Positions 2,461-52,098 of a DNA stretch of 64,000 nucleotides are shown here, piece after piece. Source of the stretch: Escherichia coli. Its GTDB lineage: Bacteria; Pseudomonadota; Gammaproteobacteria; Enterobacterales; Enterobacteriaceae. The notes under the pieces were generated by a model. The model had not been told where the DNA came from, made no database searches, and saw only the letters and a list, made by a program, of their open reading frames with translations. The translations under genes and the position numbers were made by a program. The DNA lies in the NCBI RefSeq assembly GCF_003018115.1, contig NZ_CP027457.1, one strand, 5' to 3'. Position 1 is the first letter of the stretch. Each line of letters begins with the position of its first letter.

Positions 2461-2856
2461 ATGGTAGAAAGAACCGCTGTTTTCCCTGCTGGCCGACATT
2501 CACTGTATGCTGAACATCGTTATTCTGCGGCTATTCGTTCCGGCGATTTGCTGTTTGTTTCCGGGCAAGTAGGAAGTCGAGAGGACGGAACACCAGAACC
2601 CGATTTTCAGCAACAAGTCAGACTGGCCTTTGATAATTTGCATGCGACCCTGGCAGCTGCGGGATGCACTTTTGACGATATCATTGATGTTACGAGCTTT
2701 CATACCGATCCAGAAAAACAATTTGAAGACATCATGACGGTGAAAAATGAAATATTTAGCGCGCCACCTTATCCAACCTGGACGGCGGTGGGCGTTACAT
2801 GGCTGGCAGGCTTTGATTTTGAAATTAAAGTGATAGCGCGCATCCCTGAGCTGTAA
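2461..2856 (+). CDS. yjgH: RidA/YjgF-family (RutC-like) protein YjgH
   Basis: 131-aa ORF, recognised sequence; synteny upstream of pyrL. Confidence 0.8.
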   Translation: MVERTAVFPAGRHSLYAEHRYSAAIRSGDLLFVSGQVGSREDGTPEPDFQQQVRLAFDNLHATLAAAGCTFDDIIDVTSFHTDPEKQFEDIMTVKNEIFSAPPYPTWTAVGVTWLAGFDFEIKVIARIPEL

Positions 2857-3136
2857 GCAATAGTGTTAGCCGTTCGTTTTCACACTCCGCCCTATAAGTC
2901 GGATGAATGGAATAAAATGCATATCTGATTGCGTGAAAGTGAAAAAGAAAAAAGCAGGAAATGTCTGCAATTATTGATACCGAACGACAGTTCCCCTCCA
3001 GAATCACAGTAAATAAAAATGCATATATTTTGACTTTAAATTCAAATAAACCGTTTGCGCTGACAAAATATTGCATCAATTGCTTGCACCGCTTCTGACG
3101 ATGAGTATAATGCCGGACAATTTGACGGGAGGATGT

Positions 3137-3271
3137 ATGGTTCAGTGTGTTCGACATTTTGTCTTACCGCGTCTGAAAAAAGACGCTGGCCTGCCGTTTT
3201 TCTTCCCGTTGATCACCCATTCCCAGCCCCTCAATCGAGGGGCTTTTTTTTGCCCAGGCGTCAGGAGATAA
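3137..3271 (+). CDS. pyrL: pyrBI operon leader peptide
   Basis: 44-aa ORF MVQCVRHFVLPRLKKDAGLPFFFPLITHSQPLNRGAFFCPGVRR ending 4 nt before pyrB and overlapping the attenuator hairpin. Confidence 0.8.
   Translation: MVQCVRHFVLPRLKKDAGLPFFFPLITHSQPLNRGAFFCPGVRR
3226..3252 (+). terminator. pyrBI attenuator (rho-independent terminator within pyrL)
   Basis: GC hairpin GCCCCTCAATCGAGGGGC followed by a run of 8 T, about 25 nt upstream of pyrB. Confidence 0.75.
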
Positions 3272-3274
3272 AAG

Positions 3275-4210
3275 ATGGCTAATCCGCTATATCAGAAACA
3301 TATCATTTCCATAAACGACCTTAGTCGCGATGACCTTAATCTGGTGCTGGCAACAGCGGCAAAACTGAAAGCAAACCCGCAACCAGAGCTGTTGAAGCAC
3401 AAAGTCATTGCCAGCTGCTTCTTCGAAGCCTCTACCCGTACCCGCCTCTCTTTCGAAACTTCCATGCACCGCCTGGGTGCCAGCGTGGTGGGCTTCTCCG
3501 ACAGCGCCAATACATCACTGGGTAAAAAGGGCGAAACGCTGGCCGATACCATTTCGGTTATCAGCACTTACGTCGATGCGATAGTGATGCGTCATCCGCA
3601 GGAAGGTGCGGCGCGCCTGGCCACCGAGTTTTCCGGCAATGTACCGGTACTGAATGCCGGTGATGGCTCCAACCAACATCCGACGCAAACCTTGCTGGAC
3701 TTATTCACTATTCAGGAAACCCAGGGGCGTCTGGACAATCTCCACGTCGCAATGGTTGGTGACCTGAAATATGGCCGCACCGTTCACTCCCTGACTCAGG
3801 CGTTAGCGAAGTTCGACGGCAACCGTTTTTACTTCATCGCGCCGGACGCGCTGGCAATGCCGCAATACATTCTGGATATGCTCGATGAAAAAGGGATCGC
3901 ATGGAGTCTGCACAGCTCTATTGAAGAAGTGATGGCGGAAGTAGACATCCTGTACATGACCCGCGTGCAAAAAGAGCGTCTGGACCCGTCCGAGTACGCC
4001 AACGTGAAAGCGCAGTTTGTTCTTCGCGCCAGCGATCTCCACAACGCCAAAGCCAATATGAAAGTACTGCATCCGCTGCCGCGTGTTGATGAAATTGCGA
4101 CGGATGTTGATAAAACGCCACACGCCTGGTACTTCCAGCAGGCAGGCAACGGGATTTTCGCTCGCCAGGCGTTACTGGCACTGGTTCTGAATCGCGATCT
4201 GGTACTGTAA
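3275..4210 (+). CDS. pyrB: aspartate carbamoyltransferase catalytic subunit
   Basis: 311-aa ORF with STRTR and HPxQ motifs; recognised sequence. Confidence 0.95.
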
Positions 4211-4222
4211 GGGGAAATAGAG

Positions 4223-4684
4223 ATGACACACGATAATAAATTGCAGGTTGAAGCTATTAAACGCGGCACGGTAATTGACCATATCCCCGCCCAGATCGGT
4301 TTTAAGCTGTTGAGTCTGTTCAAGCTGACCGAAACGGATCAGCGCATCACCATCGGTCTGAACTTGCCTTCTGGCGAGATGGGCCGCAAAGATCTGATCA
4401 AAATCGAAAATACCTTTTTGAGTGAAGACCAGGTAGATCAACTGGCATTGTATGCGCCGCAAGCCACGGTTAACCGTATCGACAACTATGAAGTGGTGGG
4501 TAAATCGCGCCCAAGTCTGCCGGAGCGCATCGACAATGTGCTGGTCTGCCCGAACAGCAACTGTATCAGCCATGCCGAACCGGTTTCTTCCAGCTTTGCC
4601 GTGCGAAAACGCGCCAATGACATCGCGCTCAAATGCAAATACTGTGAAAAAGAGTTTTCTCATAATGTGGTGCTGGCCAATTAA
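4223..4684 (+). CDS. pyrI: aspartate carbamoyltransferase regulatory subunit
   Basis: 153-aa ORF with C-terminal Zn-binding cysteines (CPNSNC...CKYC); immediately downstream of pyrB. Confidence 0.95.
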
Positions 4685-4756
4685 TTGCGGTTGGTAATAA
4701 AAGTCTGGCTCCCTATAATGAGCCAGACTTTTTACCGCTGTAATAAAGGAGAAATC

Positions 4757-5143
4757 ATGAGCAAAACTATCGCGACGGAAAATGCACCGGCAGCTATCGG
4801 CCCTTACGTACAGGGCGTTGATCTGGGCAATATGATCATCACCTCCGGTCAGATCCCGGTAAATCCGAAAACGGGCGAAGTACCGGCAGACGTCGCTGCA
4901 CAGGCACGTCAGTCGCTGGATAACGTAAAAGCGATCGTCGAAGCCGCTGGTCTGAAAGTGGGCGACATCGTTAAAACTACCGTGTTTGTAAAAGATCTGA
5001 ACGACTTCGCAACCGTTAATGCTACCTACGAAGCCTTCTTCACCGAACACAACGCCACCTTCCCGGCACGTTCTTGCGTTGAAGTTGCCCGTCTGCCGAA
5101 AGACGTGAAGATTGAGATCGAAGCGATCGCTGTTCGTCGCTAA
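4757..5143 (+). CDS. ridA: enamine/imine deaminase RidA (YjgF)
   Basis: ORF track 4685..5143; true start MSKTIATENAPAAIGPYVQG gives 128 aa. Confidence 0.9.
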   Translation: MSKTIATENAPAAIGPYVQGVDLGNMIITSGQIPVNPKTGEVPADVAAQARQSLDNVKAIVEAAGLKVGDIVKTTVFVKDLNDFATVNATYEAFFTEHNATFPARSCVEVARLPKDVKIEIEAIAVRR

Positions 5144-5200
5144 TCTTGATGGAAATCCGGGCTATCATGCCCGGATTAAGTCTGATGACAAACGCAAAAT

Positions 5201-5292
5201 CGCCTGATGCGCTACGCTTATCAGGCCTACGTGATTCCTGCAATTTATTGAATTTGTAGACCGGATTAGGCTTTTACGCCGCATCCGGCATG
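5201..5292. repeat. REP/BIME cluster (two inverted REP units)
   Basis: GCCTGATGCGCTACGCTTATCAGGCCTAC and CCGGATTAGGC...GCCGCATCCGGCA palindromic units between convergent ridA and mgtA. Confidence 0.7.
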
Positions 5293-5348
5293 AACAAAAC
5301 TCACTTTGTCTGCAATCTGAATCCGGGCCACCATGCCCAGTTTATTCT

Positions 5349-8045
5349 TTACTGCCAGCCGTAACGACGGCTATAGAACCCTTTCACCAACTGGGTTAAT
5401 GTCATATACCCTGCCAGAATCGCAACCAGCCACGGGAAATAGCTTAACGGCAACGCCTGTAATTGCAGATAACTGGCCAGCGGTGAAAACGGCAATGCGA
5501 TCCCGACAATCATCACGATCACGGTCATGATCATTAACGGCCACGATGCACAGCTCTGAATAAACGGCACACGGCGGGTGCGGATCATATGCACAATCAG
5601 CGTTTGCGACAGTAAGCCCACCACAAACCATCCCGACTGGAACAGCGTTTGCGTTTCCGGCGTGTTGGCATGGAATACCCACCACATCAGGCAAAACGTC
5701 AAAATATCGAAGATCGAGCTGATCGGTCCGAAGAAGATCATAAAGCGCCCCAGATCCGCCGGATTCCAACGCTGCGGCTTTTGAATTTGCTCGTCGTCGA
5801 CGTTATCAAACGGGATCGCCACCTGTGACACATCGTACAGCAGGTTCTGAATAAGCAAGTGTAACGGCAACATCGGTAGGAAGGGCAAGAAAGCACTCGC
5901 TACCAGCACGCTGAACACATTACCGAAGTTAGAGCTCGCCGTCATTTTGATGTATTTCAGCATGTTGGCGAAAGTGCGACGTCCCTCAATAACCCCCTCT
6001 TCCAGCACCATCAGGCTTTTTTCCAGCAGGATGATATCAGCCGCTTCACGGGCAATATCTACCGCGCCGTCCACAGAAATGCCGATATCCGCAGCGCGTA
6101 AGGCGGGCGCATCATTAATACCATCGCCCATAAAGCCAACCACATGCCCTTCGCGCTTCAGTAAGGTCACAATGCGTTCTTTATGCATCGGCGTCAGGCG
6201 GGCAAACAGCGTGGTGCGCTGTGCAAGATTTGCCAGTTCGTCGTCAGATAGCGTTTCAATATCACTACCAATGACCACCTCTCCCGCGTCCAGCCCCACT
6301 TCATGGCACACTTTCGCTGCAACTAACTCACTGTCGCCAGTAAGGATTTTTACGGTAATTCCACTCGCTTTTAATGCCTTCAGTGCCGGAGCGGTTGTCT
6401 CTTTTGGCGGATCAAGGAAAGCAATATATCCTTCGAGGATCAGGTCGGATTCATCCGCCCGCTGGTAATCTCCTTCACGCGCTGGCAGGTATTTCGTCGC
6501 CACCGCAACCACGCGCAGCCCCTGACGATTCAGCGTATCAGTAACCCGCTTAATCTTACGCAGCATGATGTCATCGAGCGGCACAATCTCGCCATTGTGA
6601 CGCACCTGCGAACACACATTGAGGATTTCCTGCAATGCACCTTTGCAAACCAGCTGATGGTGCTCGGTATTTTCTGCCACTACCACCGACATCCGGCGAC
6701 GCTCGAAATCAAACGGAATCTCATCGATTTTTTGCCAACGACTGGCCAGCGAGCGCGCTGACTCTTCATCCGTACCTTCGAGCACCGCTGTATCGAGCAG
6801 GTTTTTAAGTCCGGTCTGATAATGACTGTTCAACCACGCGCTATGCAGCACGCGTTCGCTGGTTTTACCGGAGATATCGGTATGATTCTCCAGCACAATT
6901 TTATCCTGTGTCAGGGTGCCGGTTTTATCAGTGCACAGAATATCCATTGCGCCAAAGTTCTGAATGGCATCCAGATGTTTGACGATCACTTTCTGTTTCG
7001 ACAGCTTTACTGCGCCGCGCGCCAGCGTCGAGGTAACAATCATCGGCAACATTTCCGGCGTTAGGCCTACCGCGACCGAAAGCGCAAACAGCGCCGCTTC
7101 CCACCAGTCGCCTTTGGTGTAGCCATTGATTAACAGCACCACCGGTGCCATCACCAGCATAAAGCGAATCAGCAGCATACTGACGCGGCTGATCCCTTGC
7201 TGAAAGGCATTCGGCTCGCTTTCCTGCTCACTAACACGCCCCGCCAGTTGACCAAACCAGGTATTGGCACCTGTAGCAATCACCATTGCTTGTGCCGTGC
7301 CGCTCACCACGGTGGTGCCCATAAAACACAGCGTGTCGCACTCCAGCGGATTGCTGTGCTCCGGCTGGCGAGTGGTAGCGGCTTTTTCCACGGGCAGAGA
7401 CTCACCGGTTAACGACGCCTGAGCGACGAACAGATCCCGCGCCTGCAAGATACGTAAATCTGCCGGGATCATATCTCCCGCCGCCAGTTTTATAATATCG
7501 CCGGGCACCAGCTGGTCGATCGGGATCTCCAGCCAGCCATTTTCGCCTTTGTCGTTAATTACGCGCAGCACCGTCGCGGTATTGCTGACCATCGCTTTCA
7601 GGGCATCTGCCGCTTTAGTGGAACGTGCTTCCTGAATAAAGTTCAGCAACGTAGAAATAGCGACCATTAGCGCGATAACGCCCGCAGCAAATAAATCTTC
7701 CGTGGCGTAAGAAATAGCGCCGAGAATGGTGAGTAAAATATTAAAGGGGTTGCGATAGCAGACCCATAAATGTACCCACCACGGCGACGGTTGTTGTGCG
7801 GGTAATTTATTTTCACCATGTTGTTCGCGGGCAGATTCCACTTCCGCCTGATTTAACCCTTCCGGATGGGTGTCGAACGTTTTCCACAATTCTTCTTCGG
7901 GCATCACCGCCATTTTCAGGCAATGCGCACTTAAGGACGGCGGGACCACCGTATTCACTGTCTGCTGCGCGCCAGGCAATGGATCACGATGAACCAGACG
8001 GGAAGGTAAATGGCGAATGAGCCGGGTAAAAATTTCTTTAAACAT
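5349..8045 (-). CDS. mgtA: Mg2+-importing P-type ATPase
   Basis: 898-aa ORF with P-type ATPase motifs (DKTGTLT, TGDS, GDGINDAPAL). Confidence 0.95.
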   Translation of the reverse strand: MFKEIFTRLIRHLPSRLVHRDPLPGAQQTVNTVVPPSLSAHCLKMAVMPEEELWKTFDTHPEGLNQAEVESAREQHGENKLPAQQPSPWWVHLWVCYRNPFNILLTILGAISYATEDLFAAGVIALMVAISTLLNFIQEARSTKAADALKAMVSNTATVLRVINDKGENGWLEIPIDQLVPGDIIKLAAGDMIPADLRILQARDLFVAQASLTGESLPVEKAATTRQPEHSNPLECDTLCFMGTTVVSGTAQAMVIATGANTWFGQLAGRVSEQESEPNAFQQGISRVSMLLIRFMLVMAPVVLLINGYTKGDWWEAALFALSVAVGLTPEMLPMIVTSTLARGAVKLSKQKVIVKHLDAIQNFGAMDILCTDKTGTLTQDKIVLENHTDISGKTSERVLHSAWLNSHYQTGLKNLLDTAVLEGTDEESARSLASRWQKIDEIPFDFERRRMSVVVAENTEHHQLVCKGALQEILNVCSQVRHNGEIVPLDDIMLRKIKRVTDTLNRQGLRVVAVATKYLPAREGDYQRADESDLILEGYIAFLDPPKETTAPALKALKASGITVKILTGDSELVAAKVCHEVGLDAGEVVIGSDIETLSDDELANLAQRTTLFARLTPMHKERIVTLLKREGHVVGFMGDGINDAPALRAADIGISVDGAVDIAREAADIILLEKSLMVLEEGVIEGRRTFANMLKYIKMTASSNFGNVFSVLVASAFLPFLPMLPLHLLIQNLLYDVSQVAIPFDNVDDEQIQKPQRWNPADLGRFMIFFGPISSIFDILTFCLMWWVFHANTPETQTLFQSGWFVVGLLSQTLIVHMIRTRRVPFIQSCASWPLMIMTVIVMIVGIALPFSPLASYLQLQALPLSYFPWLVAILAGYMTLTQLVKGFYSRRYGWQ

Positions 8046-8185
8046 AAGGAGTCCCTCCGCACTGTCTGAAACAGTACAGAAATGTCTTCAGGCGTGGCGA
8101 AGCCTTACCTGAAGGTAATAAAGCTGAGCAGGGACGTTAAAACGTCACGGCCTTACGCATCCGGTAACGCCGTGAAAAGACGGGC
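8046..8185 (-). promoter_or_regulatory. mgtA 5' leader segment between mgtL and mgtA (Mg2+/proline-responsive attenuation region)
   Basis: Untranslated stretch between the mgtL stop and the mgtA start; assignment from established knowledge of the mgtA leader. Confidence 0.5.
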
Positions 8186-8239
8186 TTACCGGAAAAGTTT
8201 TAATCTCCGTCGAGGGAGAGGCGTGGGATCAGGTTCCAT
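8186..8239 (-). CDS. mgtL: mgtA leader peptide (proline-rich)
   Basis: 17-codon [20 protein letters not shown] about 140 nt upstream of mgtA on the same strand; it is the 3' end of a longer spurious track ORF. Confidence 0.7.
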
Positions 8240-8423
8240 ATAACCTCCGGTAAGTGAAAAAAGCGCCGCAAATAATAAGGAGAATCCAATAATATTCGTA
8301 GCATCTATGGCGATATAATACCTGCTGGCAACTAAACCAACGATAAACCAGACTTTACCCATTGCTGAATGCACGGGTAAAGTTAGGCTCAAATAATTAA
8401 ACAACACGTTACGGGACAACAGG

Positions 8424-9371
8424 ATGCAAAATCGGCTGACCATCAAAGACATCGCGCGCTTAAGCGGCGTGGGGAAATCTACGGTTTCCCGGGTGCTGAA
8501 TAACGAAAGCGGCGTGAGCCAGCGTACGCGCGAGCGTGTTGAAGCAGTGATGAATCAGCATGGATTTTCCCCTTCCCGTTCTGCACGCGCTATGCGTGGG
8601 CAAAGCGATAAAGTGGTCGCCATCATTGTCACCCGTCTGGATTCGTTGTCAGAAAATCTCGCCGTTCAAACCATGCTGCCAGCGTTCTATGAACAAGGTT
8701 ACGATCCAATCATGATGGAAAGTCAGTTTTCCCCGCAATTAGTTGCCGAACATTTGGGGGTGCTGAAACGGCGTAATATCGACGGCGTAGTGCTGTTCGG
8801 TTTTACCGGCATAACAGAAGAAATGTTAGCCCACTGGCAGTCATCGCTGGTTCTGCTGGCGCGTGACGCAAAAGGCTTTGCTTCGGTCTGTTATGACGAC
8901 GAAGGGGCAATCAAGATCCTGATGCAACGGCTGTATGACCAGGGGCATCGTAATATCAGTTATCTCGGCGTGCCGCACAGTGACGTGACGACCGGTAAGC
9001 GACGTCACGAAGCCTACCTGGCGTTCTGCAAAGCGCATAAACTGCATCCCGTTGCCGCTCTGCCAGGGCTTGCTATGAAGCAAGGCTATGAGAACGTGGC
9101 AAAAGTGATTACGCCTGAAACTACTGCGTTACTGTGCGCAACCGACACGCTGGCACTTGGCGCAAGTAAATACCTGCAAGAGCAACGCATCGACACCTTG
9201 CAACTGGCGAGCGTCGGTAATACACCGTTAATGAAATTCCTCCATCCGGAGATCGTCACCGTAGATCCCGGTTACGCCGAAGCTGGACGCCAGGCGGCCT
9301 GCCAGTTGATCGCACAGGTAACCGGGCGCAGCGAACCGCAACAAATCATCATCCCCGCCACCCTGTCCTGA
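8424..9371 (+). CDS. treR: trehalose operon repressor (LacI family)
   Basis: 315-aa ORF with N-terminal LacI-type HTH (TIKDIARLSGVGKSTVSRVLN). Confidence 0.9.
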   Translation: MQNRLTIKDIARLSGVGKSTVSRVLNNESGVSQRTRERVEAVMNQHGFSPSRSARAMRGQSDKVVAIIVTRLDSLSENLAVQTMLPAFYEQGYDPIMMESQFSPQLVAEHLGVLKRRNIDGVVLFGFTGITEEMLAHWQSSLVLLARDAKGFASVCYDDEGAIKILMQRLYDQGHRNISYLGVPHSDVTTGKRRHEAYLAFCKAHKLHPVAALPGLAMKQGYENVAKVITPETTALLCATDTLALGASKYLQEQRIDTLQLASVGNTPLMKFLHPEIVTVDPGYAEAGRQAACQLIAQVTGRSEPQQIIIPATLS

Positions 9372-9410
9372 TCGTTTCCTGAACGATAAATTGTGATCTT
9401 CGCTGCGTTT

Positions 9411-9424
9411 CGGGAACGTTCCCG
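9411..9424. promoter_or_regulatory. perfect palindrome CGGGAACGTTCCCG, candidate TreR operator upstream of treB
   Basis: 14-bp perfect inverted repeat about 65 bp upstream of the treB start; LacI-family operators are palindromic. Confidence 0.4.
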
Positions 9425-9489
9425 TTTTTAAATTTTTCCGCGCAATATATTCTGCAGCCAACCAAAAATGTCATCTGCCATGGGGCTTT

Positions 9490-10911
9490 ATGATGAGCAA
9501 AATAAACCAAACGGATATCGATCGGTTGATTGAACTGGTCGGCGGGCGCGGCAATATTGCGACGGTGAGCCACTGTATTACTCGCCTGCGCTTTGTCCTC
9601 AACCAACCGGCCAATGCCAGACCGAAAGAAATTGAGCAACTCCCCATGGTGAAAGGCTGTTTCACCAATGCCGGGCAATTTCAGGTGGTGATTGGCACCA
9701 ACGTGGGTGATTACTATCAAGCACTGATAGCGTCAACCGGACAGGCGCAGGTTGATAAAGAGCAGGTAAAAAAAGCCGCCCGGCAGAATATGAAATGGCA
9801 TGAGCAGTTGATCTCTCATTTCGCGGAGATCTTCTTCCCGTTGCTGCCCGCGTTGATCAGCGGCGGTTTGATCCTCGGTTTTCGCAATGTGATCGGCGAT
9901 TTGCCCATGAGCAACGGTCAAACGCTGGCGCAAATGTATCCTTCCCTGCAAACGATCTACGATTTTCTGTGGTTGATCGGTGAAGCGATCTTCTTCTACC
10001 TGCCGGTCGGGATTTGCTGGTCAGCGGTGAAAAAAATGGGCGGCACGCCGATCCTTGGTATCGTACTTGGCGTAACGCTGGTTTCTCCACAGCTGATGAA
10101 CGCTTATCTGCTCGGACAGCAGCTGCCGGAAGTGTGGGACTTTGGCATGTTCAGCATCGCCAAAGTGGGCTATCAGGCGCAGGTGATCCCGGCACTATTA
10201 GCCGGGCTGGCGCTGGGCGTTATTGAAACTCGCCTTAAACGCATCGTGCCAGATTACCTCTATCTGGTGGTGGTGCCAGTCTGTTCGCTGATCCTCGCGG
10301 TGTTCCTCGCCCATGCGCTGATTGGTCCGTTTGGTCGCATGATTGGCGATGGCGTTGCCTTTGCGGTACGTCACCTGATGACCGGCAGCTTTGCTCCGAT
10401 TGGCGCGGCATTGTTTGGCTTCCTGTACGCCCCGCTGGTGATCACCGGGGTACACCAGACCACGCTTGCTATTGATTTGCAGATGATTCAAAGCATGGGT
10501 GGTACGCCAGTGTGGCCGCTGATTGCGCTGTCGAATATCGCTCAGGGCTCCGCCGTGATAGGCATTATCATTTCCAGCCGCAAGCACAATGAACGCGAGA
10601 TCTCCGTGCCTGCGGCGATCTCCGCCTGGCTTGGGGTCACTGAGCCTGCAATGTACGGCATCAACCTGAAATATCGCTTCCCGATGCTGTGCGCGATGAT
10701 TGGTTCTGGTCTGGCAGGATTGCTATGCGGCCTGAACGGCGTTATGGCGAATGGCATCGGCGTAGGCGGCCTGCCGGGAATTCTCTCGATTCAACCGAGC
10801 TACTGGCAGGTGTTTGCGCTGGCAATGGCTATCGCCATCATCATCCCGATTGTACTCACCTCGTTTATCTACCAGCGGAAATACCGCCTGGGCACGCTGG
10901 ACATTGTTTAA
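9490..10911 (+). CDS. treB: PTS trehalose-specific EIIBC component
   Basis: 473-aa ORF with N-terminal EIIB cysteine motif (VSHCITRLRF) and a multi-span membrane domain. Confidence 0.95.
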   Translation: MMSKINQTDIDRLIELVGGRGNIATVSHCITRLRFVLNQPANARPKEIEQLPMVKGCFTNAGQFQVVIGTNVGDYYQALIASTGQAQVDKEQVKKAARQNMKWHEQLISHFAEIFFPLLPALISGGLILGFRNVIGDLPMSNGQTLAQMYPSLQTIYDFLWLIGEAIFFYLPVGICWSAVKKMGGTPILGIVLGVTLVSPQLMNAYLLGQQLPEVWDFGMFSIAKVGYQAQVIPALLAGLALGVIETRLKRIVPDYLYLVVVPVCSLILAVFLAHALIGPFGRMIGDGVAFAVRHLMTGSFAPIGAALFGFLYAPLVITGVHQTTLAIDLQMIQSMGGTPVWPLIALSNIAQGSAVIGIIISSRKHNEREISVPAAISAWLGVTEPAMYGINLKYRFPMLCAMIGSGLAGLLCGLNGVMANGIGVGGLPGILSIQPSYWQVFALAMAIAIIIPIVLTSFIYQRKYRLGTLDIV

Positions 10912-48905: not shown

Positions 48906-49246
48906 ACCAGGCCAAGCGTATGCTGGTTGATCAAATAATATCCCCCAAGCGCAGCAATATTAATATTCACCTGCAATGGGTCGATATCTGGCTTAAAAAT
49001 ATTGTGTTTCTTCCCTTCATCCAATAAGGATTCCATTAACCGCAAGTGCGCATGGGTAATTTCTAAGAGACGCTGTGATTTTGCATAATGCACACCTTTA
49101 CTTTGATTTTCACTATGCACAATTTTTAAAAACCAGGGATTAGCAATATAATAATCCCATGTAAAATCAATAATTTTCTCAATGGCTTTTTGTGGCTGGT
49201 TAACCTGCTGATTAACGAATACACCGATACCGACAGCGTAGAATAA
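48906..49246 (-). pseudogene. remnant of a TetR-family regulator gene (C-terminal ligand-domain segment only; ytfA-like by position)
   Basis: Minus-strand frame ...[79 protein letters not shown] resembles a TetR C-terminal domain; in-frame stop at 49247-49249 and no HTH upstream; the frame reads on into IS sequence. Confidence 0.4.
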
Positions 49247-49467
49247 TTACATACCGCACAACAAGAATGTACGGTGTAAGGCGTGGAAGTCATTTTCTCC
49301 CCGGGCGCATCGTTATATCCATAATGAGCGATTTTTGATATTAATATCTTTCACCATCCGCTATTTTCACTACTTCAGAAAACAAACTTATTTTTATTAA
49401 TATCAATTATTTTTCTTTGAACATTCAACTGCGATATTTGTAAAAATATTAAACAGGCAACAATAAA

Positions 49468-50262
49468 ATGACATTACCAACAACTATTTATTCATTCCCC
49501 GCATATTTACCTCGTTTTTCGTCCACCGACAAACCAGCAAAACTAAAATTTCATCAATACGCACGCGCTACATTACTGTCAAATCGTGGAAGAGATCATA
49601 ATTGCGATGGCAGACGTACTGTTGAGATCCACAAACTAGATCTCTCAGACTGGCAAGCATTCAATAAGTTAGCAAAGAAGTGTAATGCTTACGATGGAGT
49701 AACGATGAATGGTGATAATTCTTTTGGATGGAACCATGAAGCTACATTAGATAATATTCACGCCCAGAAATACAATAAAGCTTACGCGGGTGCGAGGTTA
49801 ACCGCAGAACTGAAATATTTATTGCAAGATGTCGAATCCTTCGAACCCAACAGTAAATACACAATACACGAAGTGGTTTTGGGACCTGGTTATGGTACTC
49901 CAGACTATACCGGCCAAACGATAGGATACGTTGTAACCCTTCCTGCCCAAATGCCTAATTGCTGGTCATCTGAACTACCAACAATCGATCTTTATATCGA
50001 CCAACTTCGCACTGTTACAGGCGTTTCTAATGCCCTCGGATTCATCATTGCTGCATTGCTAAACGCGTATTCTGATTTACCCCATGATTTGAAAATTGGT
50101 CTGCGTTCCTTATCAAGCTCAGCCGCAATCTACTCGGGTTTGGGTTTTGAGCGAGTGCCGCAGGAGCGAGACATCAGTTGCGCTCGTATGTATCTAACGC
50201 CAGCAAACCATCCTGACTTATGGACACAAGAGAATGGTGAATGGATCTACTTGCGAAACTAA
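49468..50262 (+). CDS. yjfZ: uncharacterised protein YjfZ
   Basis: 264-aa AT-rich ORF; name from size and synteny next to rplI. Confidence 0.75.
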   Translation: MTLPTTIYSFPAYLPRFSSTDKPAKLKFHQYARATLLSNRGRDHNCDGRRTVEIHKLDLSDWQAFNKLAKKCNAYDGVTMNGDNSFGWNHEATLDNIHAQKYNKAYAGARLTAELKYLLQDVESFEPNSKYTIHEVVLGPGYGTPDYTGQTIGYVVTLPAQMPNCWSSELPTIDLYIDQLRTVTGVSNALGFIIAALLNAYSDLPHDLKIGLRSLSSSAAIYSGLGFERVPQERDISCARMYLTPANHPDLWTQENGEWIYLRN

Positions 50263-50288
50263 TACCTGACGAAAAATAGAAAGCAAAA

Positions 50289-50312
50289 CGCCGACCAATG
50301 GTCGGCGTTTTT
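50289..50312. terminator. bidirectional terminator between yjfZ and rplI
   Basis: Hairpin CGCCGACCAATGGTCGGCG with an A-tract upstream and TTTTT downstream. Confidence 0.65.
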
Positions 50313-50332
50313 ACGTCTCGTTGAATAACGAA

Positions 50333-50794
<462 letters not shown>

Positions 50795-50823
50795 TCAAAG
50801 TCGTATTAATGGACCGTGACCGA

Positions 50824-51370
<547 letters not shown>

Positions 51371-51376
51371 CAGAAA

Positions 51377-51790
<414 letters not shown>

Positions 51791-52098
51791 TTATTCAGCC
51801 TCCTGTCTGGGTCAGCCGAATCCCGGGGAGGCAAGGAACGTGTTAAAGGTCGGCTGAAAAATGACGCGTTATAGTACTGACATACCCCGCTAAACTCAAG
51901 GCCAGCCGACAAATAAATCTCATCTTTCACCAAAGTGGACTAACACGCTGATTTGAAGTTCATCACACTTCATCATGGTGTTTTTTTGAACAACTGCATC
52001 AGAAATGGTCACCATCAACTTCCTTATCATTGATTAAAATTAAATCAGAAGATCATCACAGAGGAGAGCACACAAAGTCAGCCGTCGAGGAGGTATCT

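Follow-up and report, generated by a model that had tools for sequence, protein, structure and literature searches.

The closest described counterpart of the locus examined here is ytfA of Escherichia coli K-12, annotated in MG1655 as a pseudogene (b4205). For a long time annotations gave the K-12 equivalent as a protein of 108 amino acids (PMC3614548). In the literature on E. coli, ytfA appears both as a pseudogene and as a TetR-family gene that is strain-variable (PMC6790063; bioRxiv 10.64898/2025.12.20.695731), with the K-12 copy explicitly called a pseudogene in a 2025 preprint (bioRxiv 10.64898/2025.12.20.695731). CRISPRi directed at ytfA in K-12 is reported to have led to modest changes in the expression of dapE and bssS (bioRxiv 10.64898/2025.12.20.695731), and the spacer between yjfZ and ytfA is bound in vitro by RNA polymerase and H-NS (PMC3946193). 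The transposon-encoded nuclease TnpB also bears on this locus; in the published model its guide is taken from the DNA that flanks the RE of the transposon, and its TAM corresponds to the target motif of the transposon (PMC8612924; PMC10055086).

In the window, by which we mean the whole 64-kb stretch of E. coli DNA that was analysed, the ORFs and the annotation of near-identical genomes give the gene order fklB - ytfB - remnant/IS609 - yjfZ - rplI - rpsR - priB - rpsF. The sequence between ytfB and yjfZ is near-identical to K-12 ytfA and starts, at its 5' end, with ancestral codon 83; an insertion sequence divides it into two pieces. Joined together, the two pieces make up the 402 nt annotated as ytfA in MG1655, being collinear with NC_000913.3 4427694-4428095 at 99.0% identity over 402 nt. 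This is an ordinary gene remnant, one that was known and annotated beforehand. We regard it with great confidence as a functionless ytfA pseudogene, further interrupted by IS609, that would have arisen through three sequential events.

Table. Features at the interrupted ytfA locus; positions are those of the window.
Feature	Position	Strand	Description
ytfA pseudogene piece A	48902..49195	(-)	Ancestral codons 83-180 of a 215-aa TetR/AcrR regulator
ytfA pseudogene piece B	47046..47153	(-)	Codons 181-215 and stop codon (C-terminal tail); contiguous with piece A in K-12 and intact alleles
IS609 (IS200/IS605 family)	47154..48901	tnpB strand (-)	1748 bp, between ytfA codons 180 (TAT) and 181 (CAC)
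tnpB/insQ of IS609	47197..48405	(-)	Intact 402-aa ORF; Pfam HTH_OrfB_IS605, OrfB_IS605 (E=3e-34) and Cas12f1-like_TNB
tnpA of IS609	48413..48844	(+)	Intact 143-aa Y1 (HUH) transposase; Pfam Y1_Tnp E=3e-42, 121 of 121 profile positions
Reductase relic	49200..49302	(+)	103 nt, about codons 30-64 of a divergent 3-ketoacyl-ACP reductase (SDR) gene; two in-frame stops
Chimeric 140-aa ORF	48698..49120	(-)	GTG start; TetR residues 108-180, then IS609 LE antisense to the tnpA 3' end

An earlier note, made from the sequence alone, had described the minus-strand frame beside the insertion sequence as a segment resembling a TetR-family C-terminal domain that lacks its helix-turn-helix (HTH), and both points were borne out. 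When the minus frame from 49246 to 48906 was compared with Pfam, residues 18-112 of its translation matched TetR_C_29 (PF17938) with E=1.6e-24 over profile positions 1-95 of 119; that is, piece A comprises the first ~95 of the 119 positions of this ligand/dimerisation domain. Searching the window by tblastn with the full-length E. coli orthologue from strain S1-IND-02-A placed residues 83-187 at 49195-48881 (91% identity, E=2e-64) and residues 177-215 at 47165-47049 (90% identity, E=5e-18). The TetR homology of the remnant is far above chance, and these matches, along with synteny with the intact gene, assign it to the TetR/AcrR family by descent. The HTH-bearing residues 1-82 of the orthologue found no tblastn match in the whole 64-kb window, and Pfam detected no TetR_N (PF00440) domain in the remnant, a domain that occupies residues 19-61 of the intact orthologue. 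On the 5' side TetR homology ends at 49195/49196, which corresponds to codon 83 and to the first position of TetR_C_29. In strain 33F4, the PGAP annotation lists the stretch equivalent to piece A as a partial TetR/AcrR pseudogene; piece B is labelled a TetR/AcrR pseudogene with its N-terminus missing, and in many genomes both pieces are marked as partial TetR/AcrR pseudogenes on either side of IS609.

The in-frame stop at 49247-49249, which the note had offered as a sign of decay, is indeed in frame with the remnant; it lies outside the TetR-derived DNA, within the reductase relic. The 17 codons at 49196-49246 that separate it from the TetR homology are the antisense of the reductase-gene fragment, and the stop itself is a minus-strand TAA inside that fragment. 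Judged by this position, the stop is no decay mutation of the TetR frame and belongs to unrelated, reductase-derived DNA. The statement that the frame runs straight into the insertion sequence held as well, with the boundary at 48901/48902 (with an ambiguity of 1 nt) in place of 48906; the original estimate was off by 5 nt because the conserved TTTAT target bases had been counted as part of the element.

The insertion sequence is named an IS609 family transposase by PGAP. Its LE, on the tnpA side, abuts piece A and its RE abuts piece B; TTAT lies immediately 5' of LE, and a target-site duplication is absent. A blastn comparison with K-12 MG1655 found window positions 46001-47153 and 48901-52000 to be collinear with the K-12 chromosome with one ambiguous base in common, and the K-12 sequence is recovered exactly when 47154-48901 is excised. 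Along the ytfA strand, ...GGCCTGGTTTAT runs directly into CACATCAGTATGG... in K-12, while in the window ...GGCCTGGTTTAT is followed by the element, which runs from CCGGTGCGCC to GGATGTCAA, and then by CACATCAGTATGG.... The element encodes the Y1 HUH TnpA and the TnpB (OrfB_IS605) of the IS200/IS605 family, both with complete matches to their Pfam domains and the latter carrying the annotation of an InsQ/TnpB-family RNA-guided endonuclease, and it shares with that family insertion 3' of a short specific target, the lack of a duplication, non-inverted ends and subterminal palindromes, which here are imperfect (LE, CCCCGTCC..GGGCGGGG; RE, CCACGTCC..GGGCGTGG). Comparison with three other IS609 copies, located beside ydcO, beside a DUF1869 gene and beside yedK, revealed that all four independent copies, including that in the window, are 1748 bp in length, are preceded by TTAT before LE on the tnpB strand and have GTCAA at the 3' end. 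By these features the insertion in the window is a canonical IS609 insertion.

The RE flank CACATCAGTATGG..., when joined to TTAT, reconstitutes exactly the empty K-12-type ytfA site, which consists of TTAT followed by CACATCAGTATGGTTTCACC. Under the published TnpB model, the RNA of the IS609 copy in the window is predicted to be guided by CACATCAGTATGG..., that is by the tail of ytfA, with TTAT as the TAM. An omega/right-end guide RNA would be expected to map to the interval 47141-47324 (-), which covers the tnpB 3' end and RE. A scan of 46000-50500 against Rfam at a permissive E-value yielded nothing that reached its gathering score, only weak matches at the tnpB 3' end and terminator-like matches near rplI. 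At 47141-47324 (-) the sub-threshold matches were to HgcC (23.5 bits versus a gathering score of 50, E=0.02), sot0042 (17.5 bits versus 88) and RAGATH-18, and the HgcC match extends 13 nt into the ytfA tail. The gap between yjfZ and rplI holds a strong bidirectional terminator-like hairpin at 50260-50317 (AAAACGCCGACCAATGGTCGGCGTTTT), for which weak Rfam matches to STnc420 and rnk_pseudo fell well under their gathering scores. The IS-bearing and the empty ytfA alleles offer a natural pair for experiments on guided cleavage of an empty donor site by TnpB in E. coli.

The suggestion that a regulator gene had decayed by truncation and been split by the insertion was upheld by comparison with intact alleles. 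Of 5426 complete E. coli genomes, 3131 have an intact gene of 215 codons at this position beside ytfB, relative to which the window has lost codons 1-82; the product of the intact gene carries TetR_N at residues 19-61 and TetR_C_29 at residues 83-201 (Pfam). The last 35 codons and the stop are found directly across the IS609 element, and are contiguous with the rest in K-12. Full-length orthologues extend 35 residues past the IS junction, so the idea that an intact orthologue might end at that point independently of the element falls away. The last 17 nt of ytfA, stop codon included (47046-47062), are shared with the 3' end of convergent ytfB, an overlap that may constrain this part of the pseudogene and could confound knock-downs of ytfA.

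NZ_CP145646.1 and E. coli B both have the intact gene and its accompanying operon at this locus, in the order TetR gene, a 212-bp divergent promoter region, SDR, sugar-phosphate isomerase/epimerase, enoyl-CoA hydratase, CoA transferase, FAD oxidoreductase, MFS transporter and yjfZ. The six-gene operon (2748-10167 of the intact allele L003 from NZ_CP145646.1) is uncharacterised and is present in 58% of complete E. coli genomes, K-12 and the window being without it; among its products are a TIM-barrel isomerase/epimerase-like protein, a FadX-like CoA transferase, a fumarate-reductase-like FAD oxidoreductase of 690 amino acids and a D-galactonate-type MFS transporter. When the regulator and operon products were compared with NCBIfam, the regulator fell under every curated cut-off and the SDR alone exceeded its own (PRK12745, 3-ketoacyl-ACP reductase), and a sequence search of the PDB with the full-length regulator returned generic TetR-family structures only (best 3npi, E=1e-16), with no characterised close relative among them. 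Since a TetR gene divergent from an operon is an arrangement typical of the family, the ancestral regulator, by analogy, most likely acted as a local repressor of that operon.

Two deletions, one of ~545 bp and one of ~7.3 kb, set the window apart from the intact locus. In blastn comparisons with the intact sequence, 46001-47153 and 48901-49196 are contiguous, 49200-49302 falls inside the reductase gene, and the sequence from 49300 onward matches the region upstream of yjfZ. These sequence relationships and breakpoints are direct observations. Comparing the junctions of the window (49193-49203 and 49296-49310) with the corresponding endpoints in L003 (2283-2290/2828-2835 and 2930-2945/10262-10275, respectively) revealed microhomology at the intact endpoints, GTGGCGGA for the first deletion and TCCCTG for the second, from which we infer that the deletions probably arose by microhomology-mediated illegitimate recombination or slippage.

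The relic left between the two deletions is more diverged than the TetR sequence beside it. Against the reductase gene of three intact alleles it is 79.6-82% identical by blastn, with E-values down to 1e-24, and tblastn with the SDR protein gave E=5e-8; for the TetR piece next to it, identity is 97-98.6% to the intact alleles L003 and L006 and ~79-80% to the intact allele L005. The mismatches in the relic are clustered. More-diverged intact alleles, from the 89% and 95% identity classes (L005 and L006), were considered as its source and matched it no better, still at 80-82%. A single recent deletion from one of the intact alleles examined would not suffice alone to account for this divergence. 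Possible reasons for it are descent from a divergent source allele, mutation associated with repair, or a later homogenisation by recombination confined to the ytfB-ytfA side.

The distribution of these arrangements was surveyed across the 5426 complete E. coli genomes, an allele being scored as intact when it matched at least 80% of a 1713-nt probe spanning regulator and reductase. The intact regulator and reductase were present in 3131 genomes, the 5'-deleted but uninterrupted arrangement of K-12 in 482, and the arrangement of the window, 5'-deleted with IS609 directly beside piece A, in 1699; these counts total 5312, and the other ~114 genomes have other configurations. A chimeric probe for IS609 within an otherwise full-length TetR gene matched none of the 5426 complete genomes. 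As the deletion occurs without the element in 482 genomes and the element was never found in a full-length gene, the deletion preceded IS609, and the 5' truncation and the insertion are independent events. Both the population frequencies and this order of events are observed directly. Our reading of the locus would begin with a 215-residue TetR/AcrR repressor convergent with ytfB and divergent from a six-gene operon lying upstream of yjfZ. Two microhomology-flanked deletions would then have removed codons 1-82, the shared promoter region and nearly the whole operon, leaving TetR codons 83-215 and the 103-nt reductase relic, which is the state of ytfA in K-12. IS609 would have entered this deleted haplotype by the single-strand 'peel-and-paste' route of its family, 3' of TTAT and between codons 180 and 181. 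The joint loss of regulator and operon would have turned the leftover C-terminal coding sequence into neutral DNA, in which IS609 landed later.

The adjacency of IS609 to a truncated gene could be taken to mean that the HTH half was lost to the insertion itself, for instance by an adjacent deletion that the IS mediated. The element, however, sits in the 3' part of the gene, at codons 180/181, with the missing 5' end 295 nt away, and removing it gives the K-12 sequence exactly; the identical 5' breakpoint in K-12 and in the 482 IS-free genomes rules this candidate out, and we consider it next to impossible. How often IS609 arrived at this site is a separate matter. The simplest reading is that it did so once, on the deleted haplotype, because none of the 3131 intact-gene genomes carries the element and the intact alleles L003 and L006 retain TTAT and nearly the same flank. 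Repeated arrival, through independent TTAT-directed insertions or through spread by cleavage of empty ytfA sites under TnpB/omega-RNA guidance and their subsequent repair by recombination, would be in keeping with TTAT being the IS609 target, with the RE flank and TTAT together reconstituting the empty K-12 site that is the TnpB target in the published model (PMC8612924; PMC10055086), and with the span of 95-99% identity among IS-bearing alleles. Against it stand the empty intact alleles that keep TTAT at this position, an insertion point identical in every copy examined, and the state of the element itself. Both tnpA and tnpB are intact at the ytfA site in strain 33F4, as they are in the window; in five other genomes with the identical site (L010-L013 and L015) tnpA is flagged as a pseudogene on account of an internal stop or the loss of its C-terminus, and one of the five also has a frameshifted tnpB. 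With such decay in many lineages the insertion looks old, which suggests that it was inherited, and we consider repeated arrival unlikely.

The other alternatives concern whether the remnant still does something. It might persist as a functional stand-alone TetR C-terminal protein for ligand binding and dimerisation without DNA binding, represented in the window by the 140-residue chimera. This would find encouragement in the retention of the remnant in ~40% of E. coli genomes, the open frame with a GTG start, the former annotation of the K-12 equivalent as a 108-residue protein (PMC3614548), the altered expression of two genes upon CRISPRi of K-12 ytfA, and the in vitro binding of RNA polymerase to the upstream spacer. 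The chimeric frame is the only ORF through the remnant in the window and is most likely not a gene; some genomes have comparable chimeras that PGAP lists as 'hypothetical protein'. There is no ATG, the first candidate start is the internal GTG at 49120, no Shine-Dalgarno sequence is visible upstream of it, and the frame then enters IS609. A promoter and terminator scan of 48850-49500 identified four promoter-like sites, a total not above the 2.8 ± 1.7 found in shuffled controls, and on the minus strand none of them precedes the remnant; the scan lends its expression no support. The C-terminal domain is itself incomplete, since the element takes away its last 35 residues, displacing profile positions 96-119 by 1748 bp to piece B, and with the intact gene absent there is no full-length partner to titrate. 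Remnant alleles elsewhere carry a nonsense mutation (W103* in L015) and a frameshift (L012). Across the ten alleles of the selection comparison, to which the L012 frameshift adds an eleventh, singletons comprised ~8 non-synonymous or nonsense and ~6 synonymous changes, versus 9 synonymous and 2 non-synonymous ones separating a pair of intact alleles; this excess, from few sites and few alleles, points to relaxed constraint on the remnant. Given the reported binding of RNA polymerase and H-NS (PMC3946193) and the CRISPRi effects (bioRxiv 10.64898/2025.12.20.695731), the region may be transcribed; neither observation shows a function, and the CRISPRi effects could be polar on ytfB because ytfB overlaps the ytfA tail. 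We infer that the remnant is non-functional and hold a working stand-alone protein to be highly improbable. Equally remote is the broader notion that an HTH-less TetR_C_29 fragment was retained for a function, whether as a small-molecule-binding protein or as DNA that serves as a fixed landing or guide site for self-maintenance by the IS609 TnpB.

The appropriate label for the feature is a single pseudogene, ytfA, in two pieces around IS609, and neither a novel regulator nor a hypothetical protein. It has little importance beyond correct annotation. The three haplotypes, intact with the operon, deleted, and deleted with IS609, provide a convenient lineage marker and a textbook case of stepwise gene decay.

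Compared with the known systems, the locus in the window is closest to K-12 ytfA, with which it shares the ytfB-yjfZ location and the 5' breakpoint at ancestral codon 83. Unlike the window, K-12 ytfA is uninterrupted; here IS609 lies between its first 294 nt and its last 108 nt. The intact regulators WP_015674817.1 and WP_001318432.1 (from strains such as S1-IND-02-A and E. coli B) are encoded by orthologues likewise convergent with ytfB, with 97-98.6% DNA identity to the window over codons 83-215, but they have their own TetR_N HTH, start codon and divergent six-gene operon, of which the window keeps only the 103-nt reductase relic. IS609 elsewhere in E. coli, for instance next to ydcO in K-12, resembles the element in the window in its 1748-bp length, divergent tnpA and tnpB, TTAT target, GTCAA end, lack of a duplication and similar imperfect palindromes at both ends, and differs in its insertion site and in the internal stops or frameshifts present in many copies, whereas tnpA and tnpB in the window are both intact.
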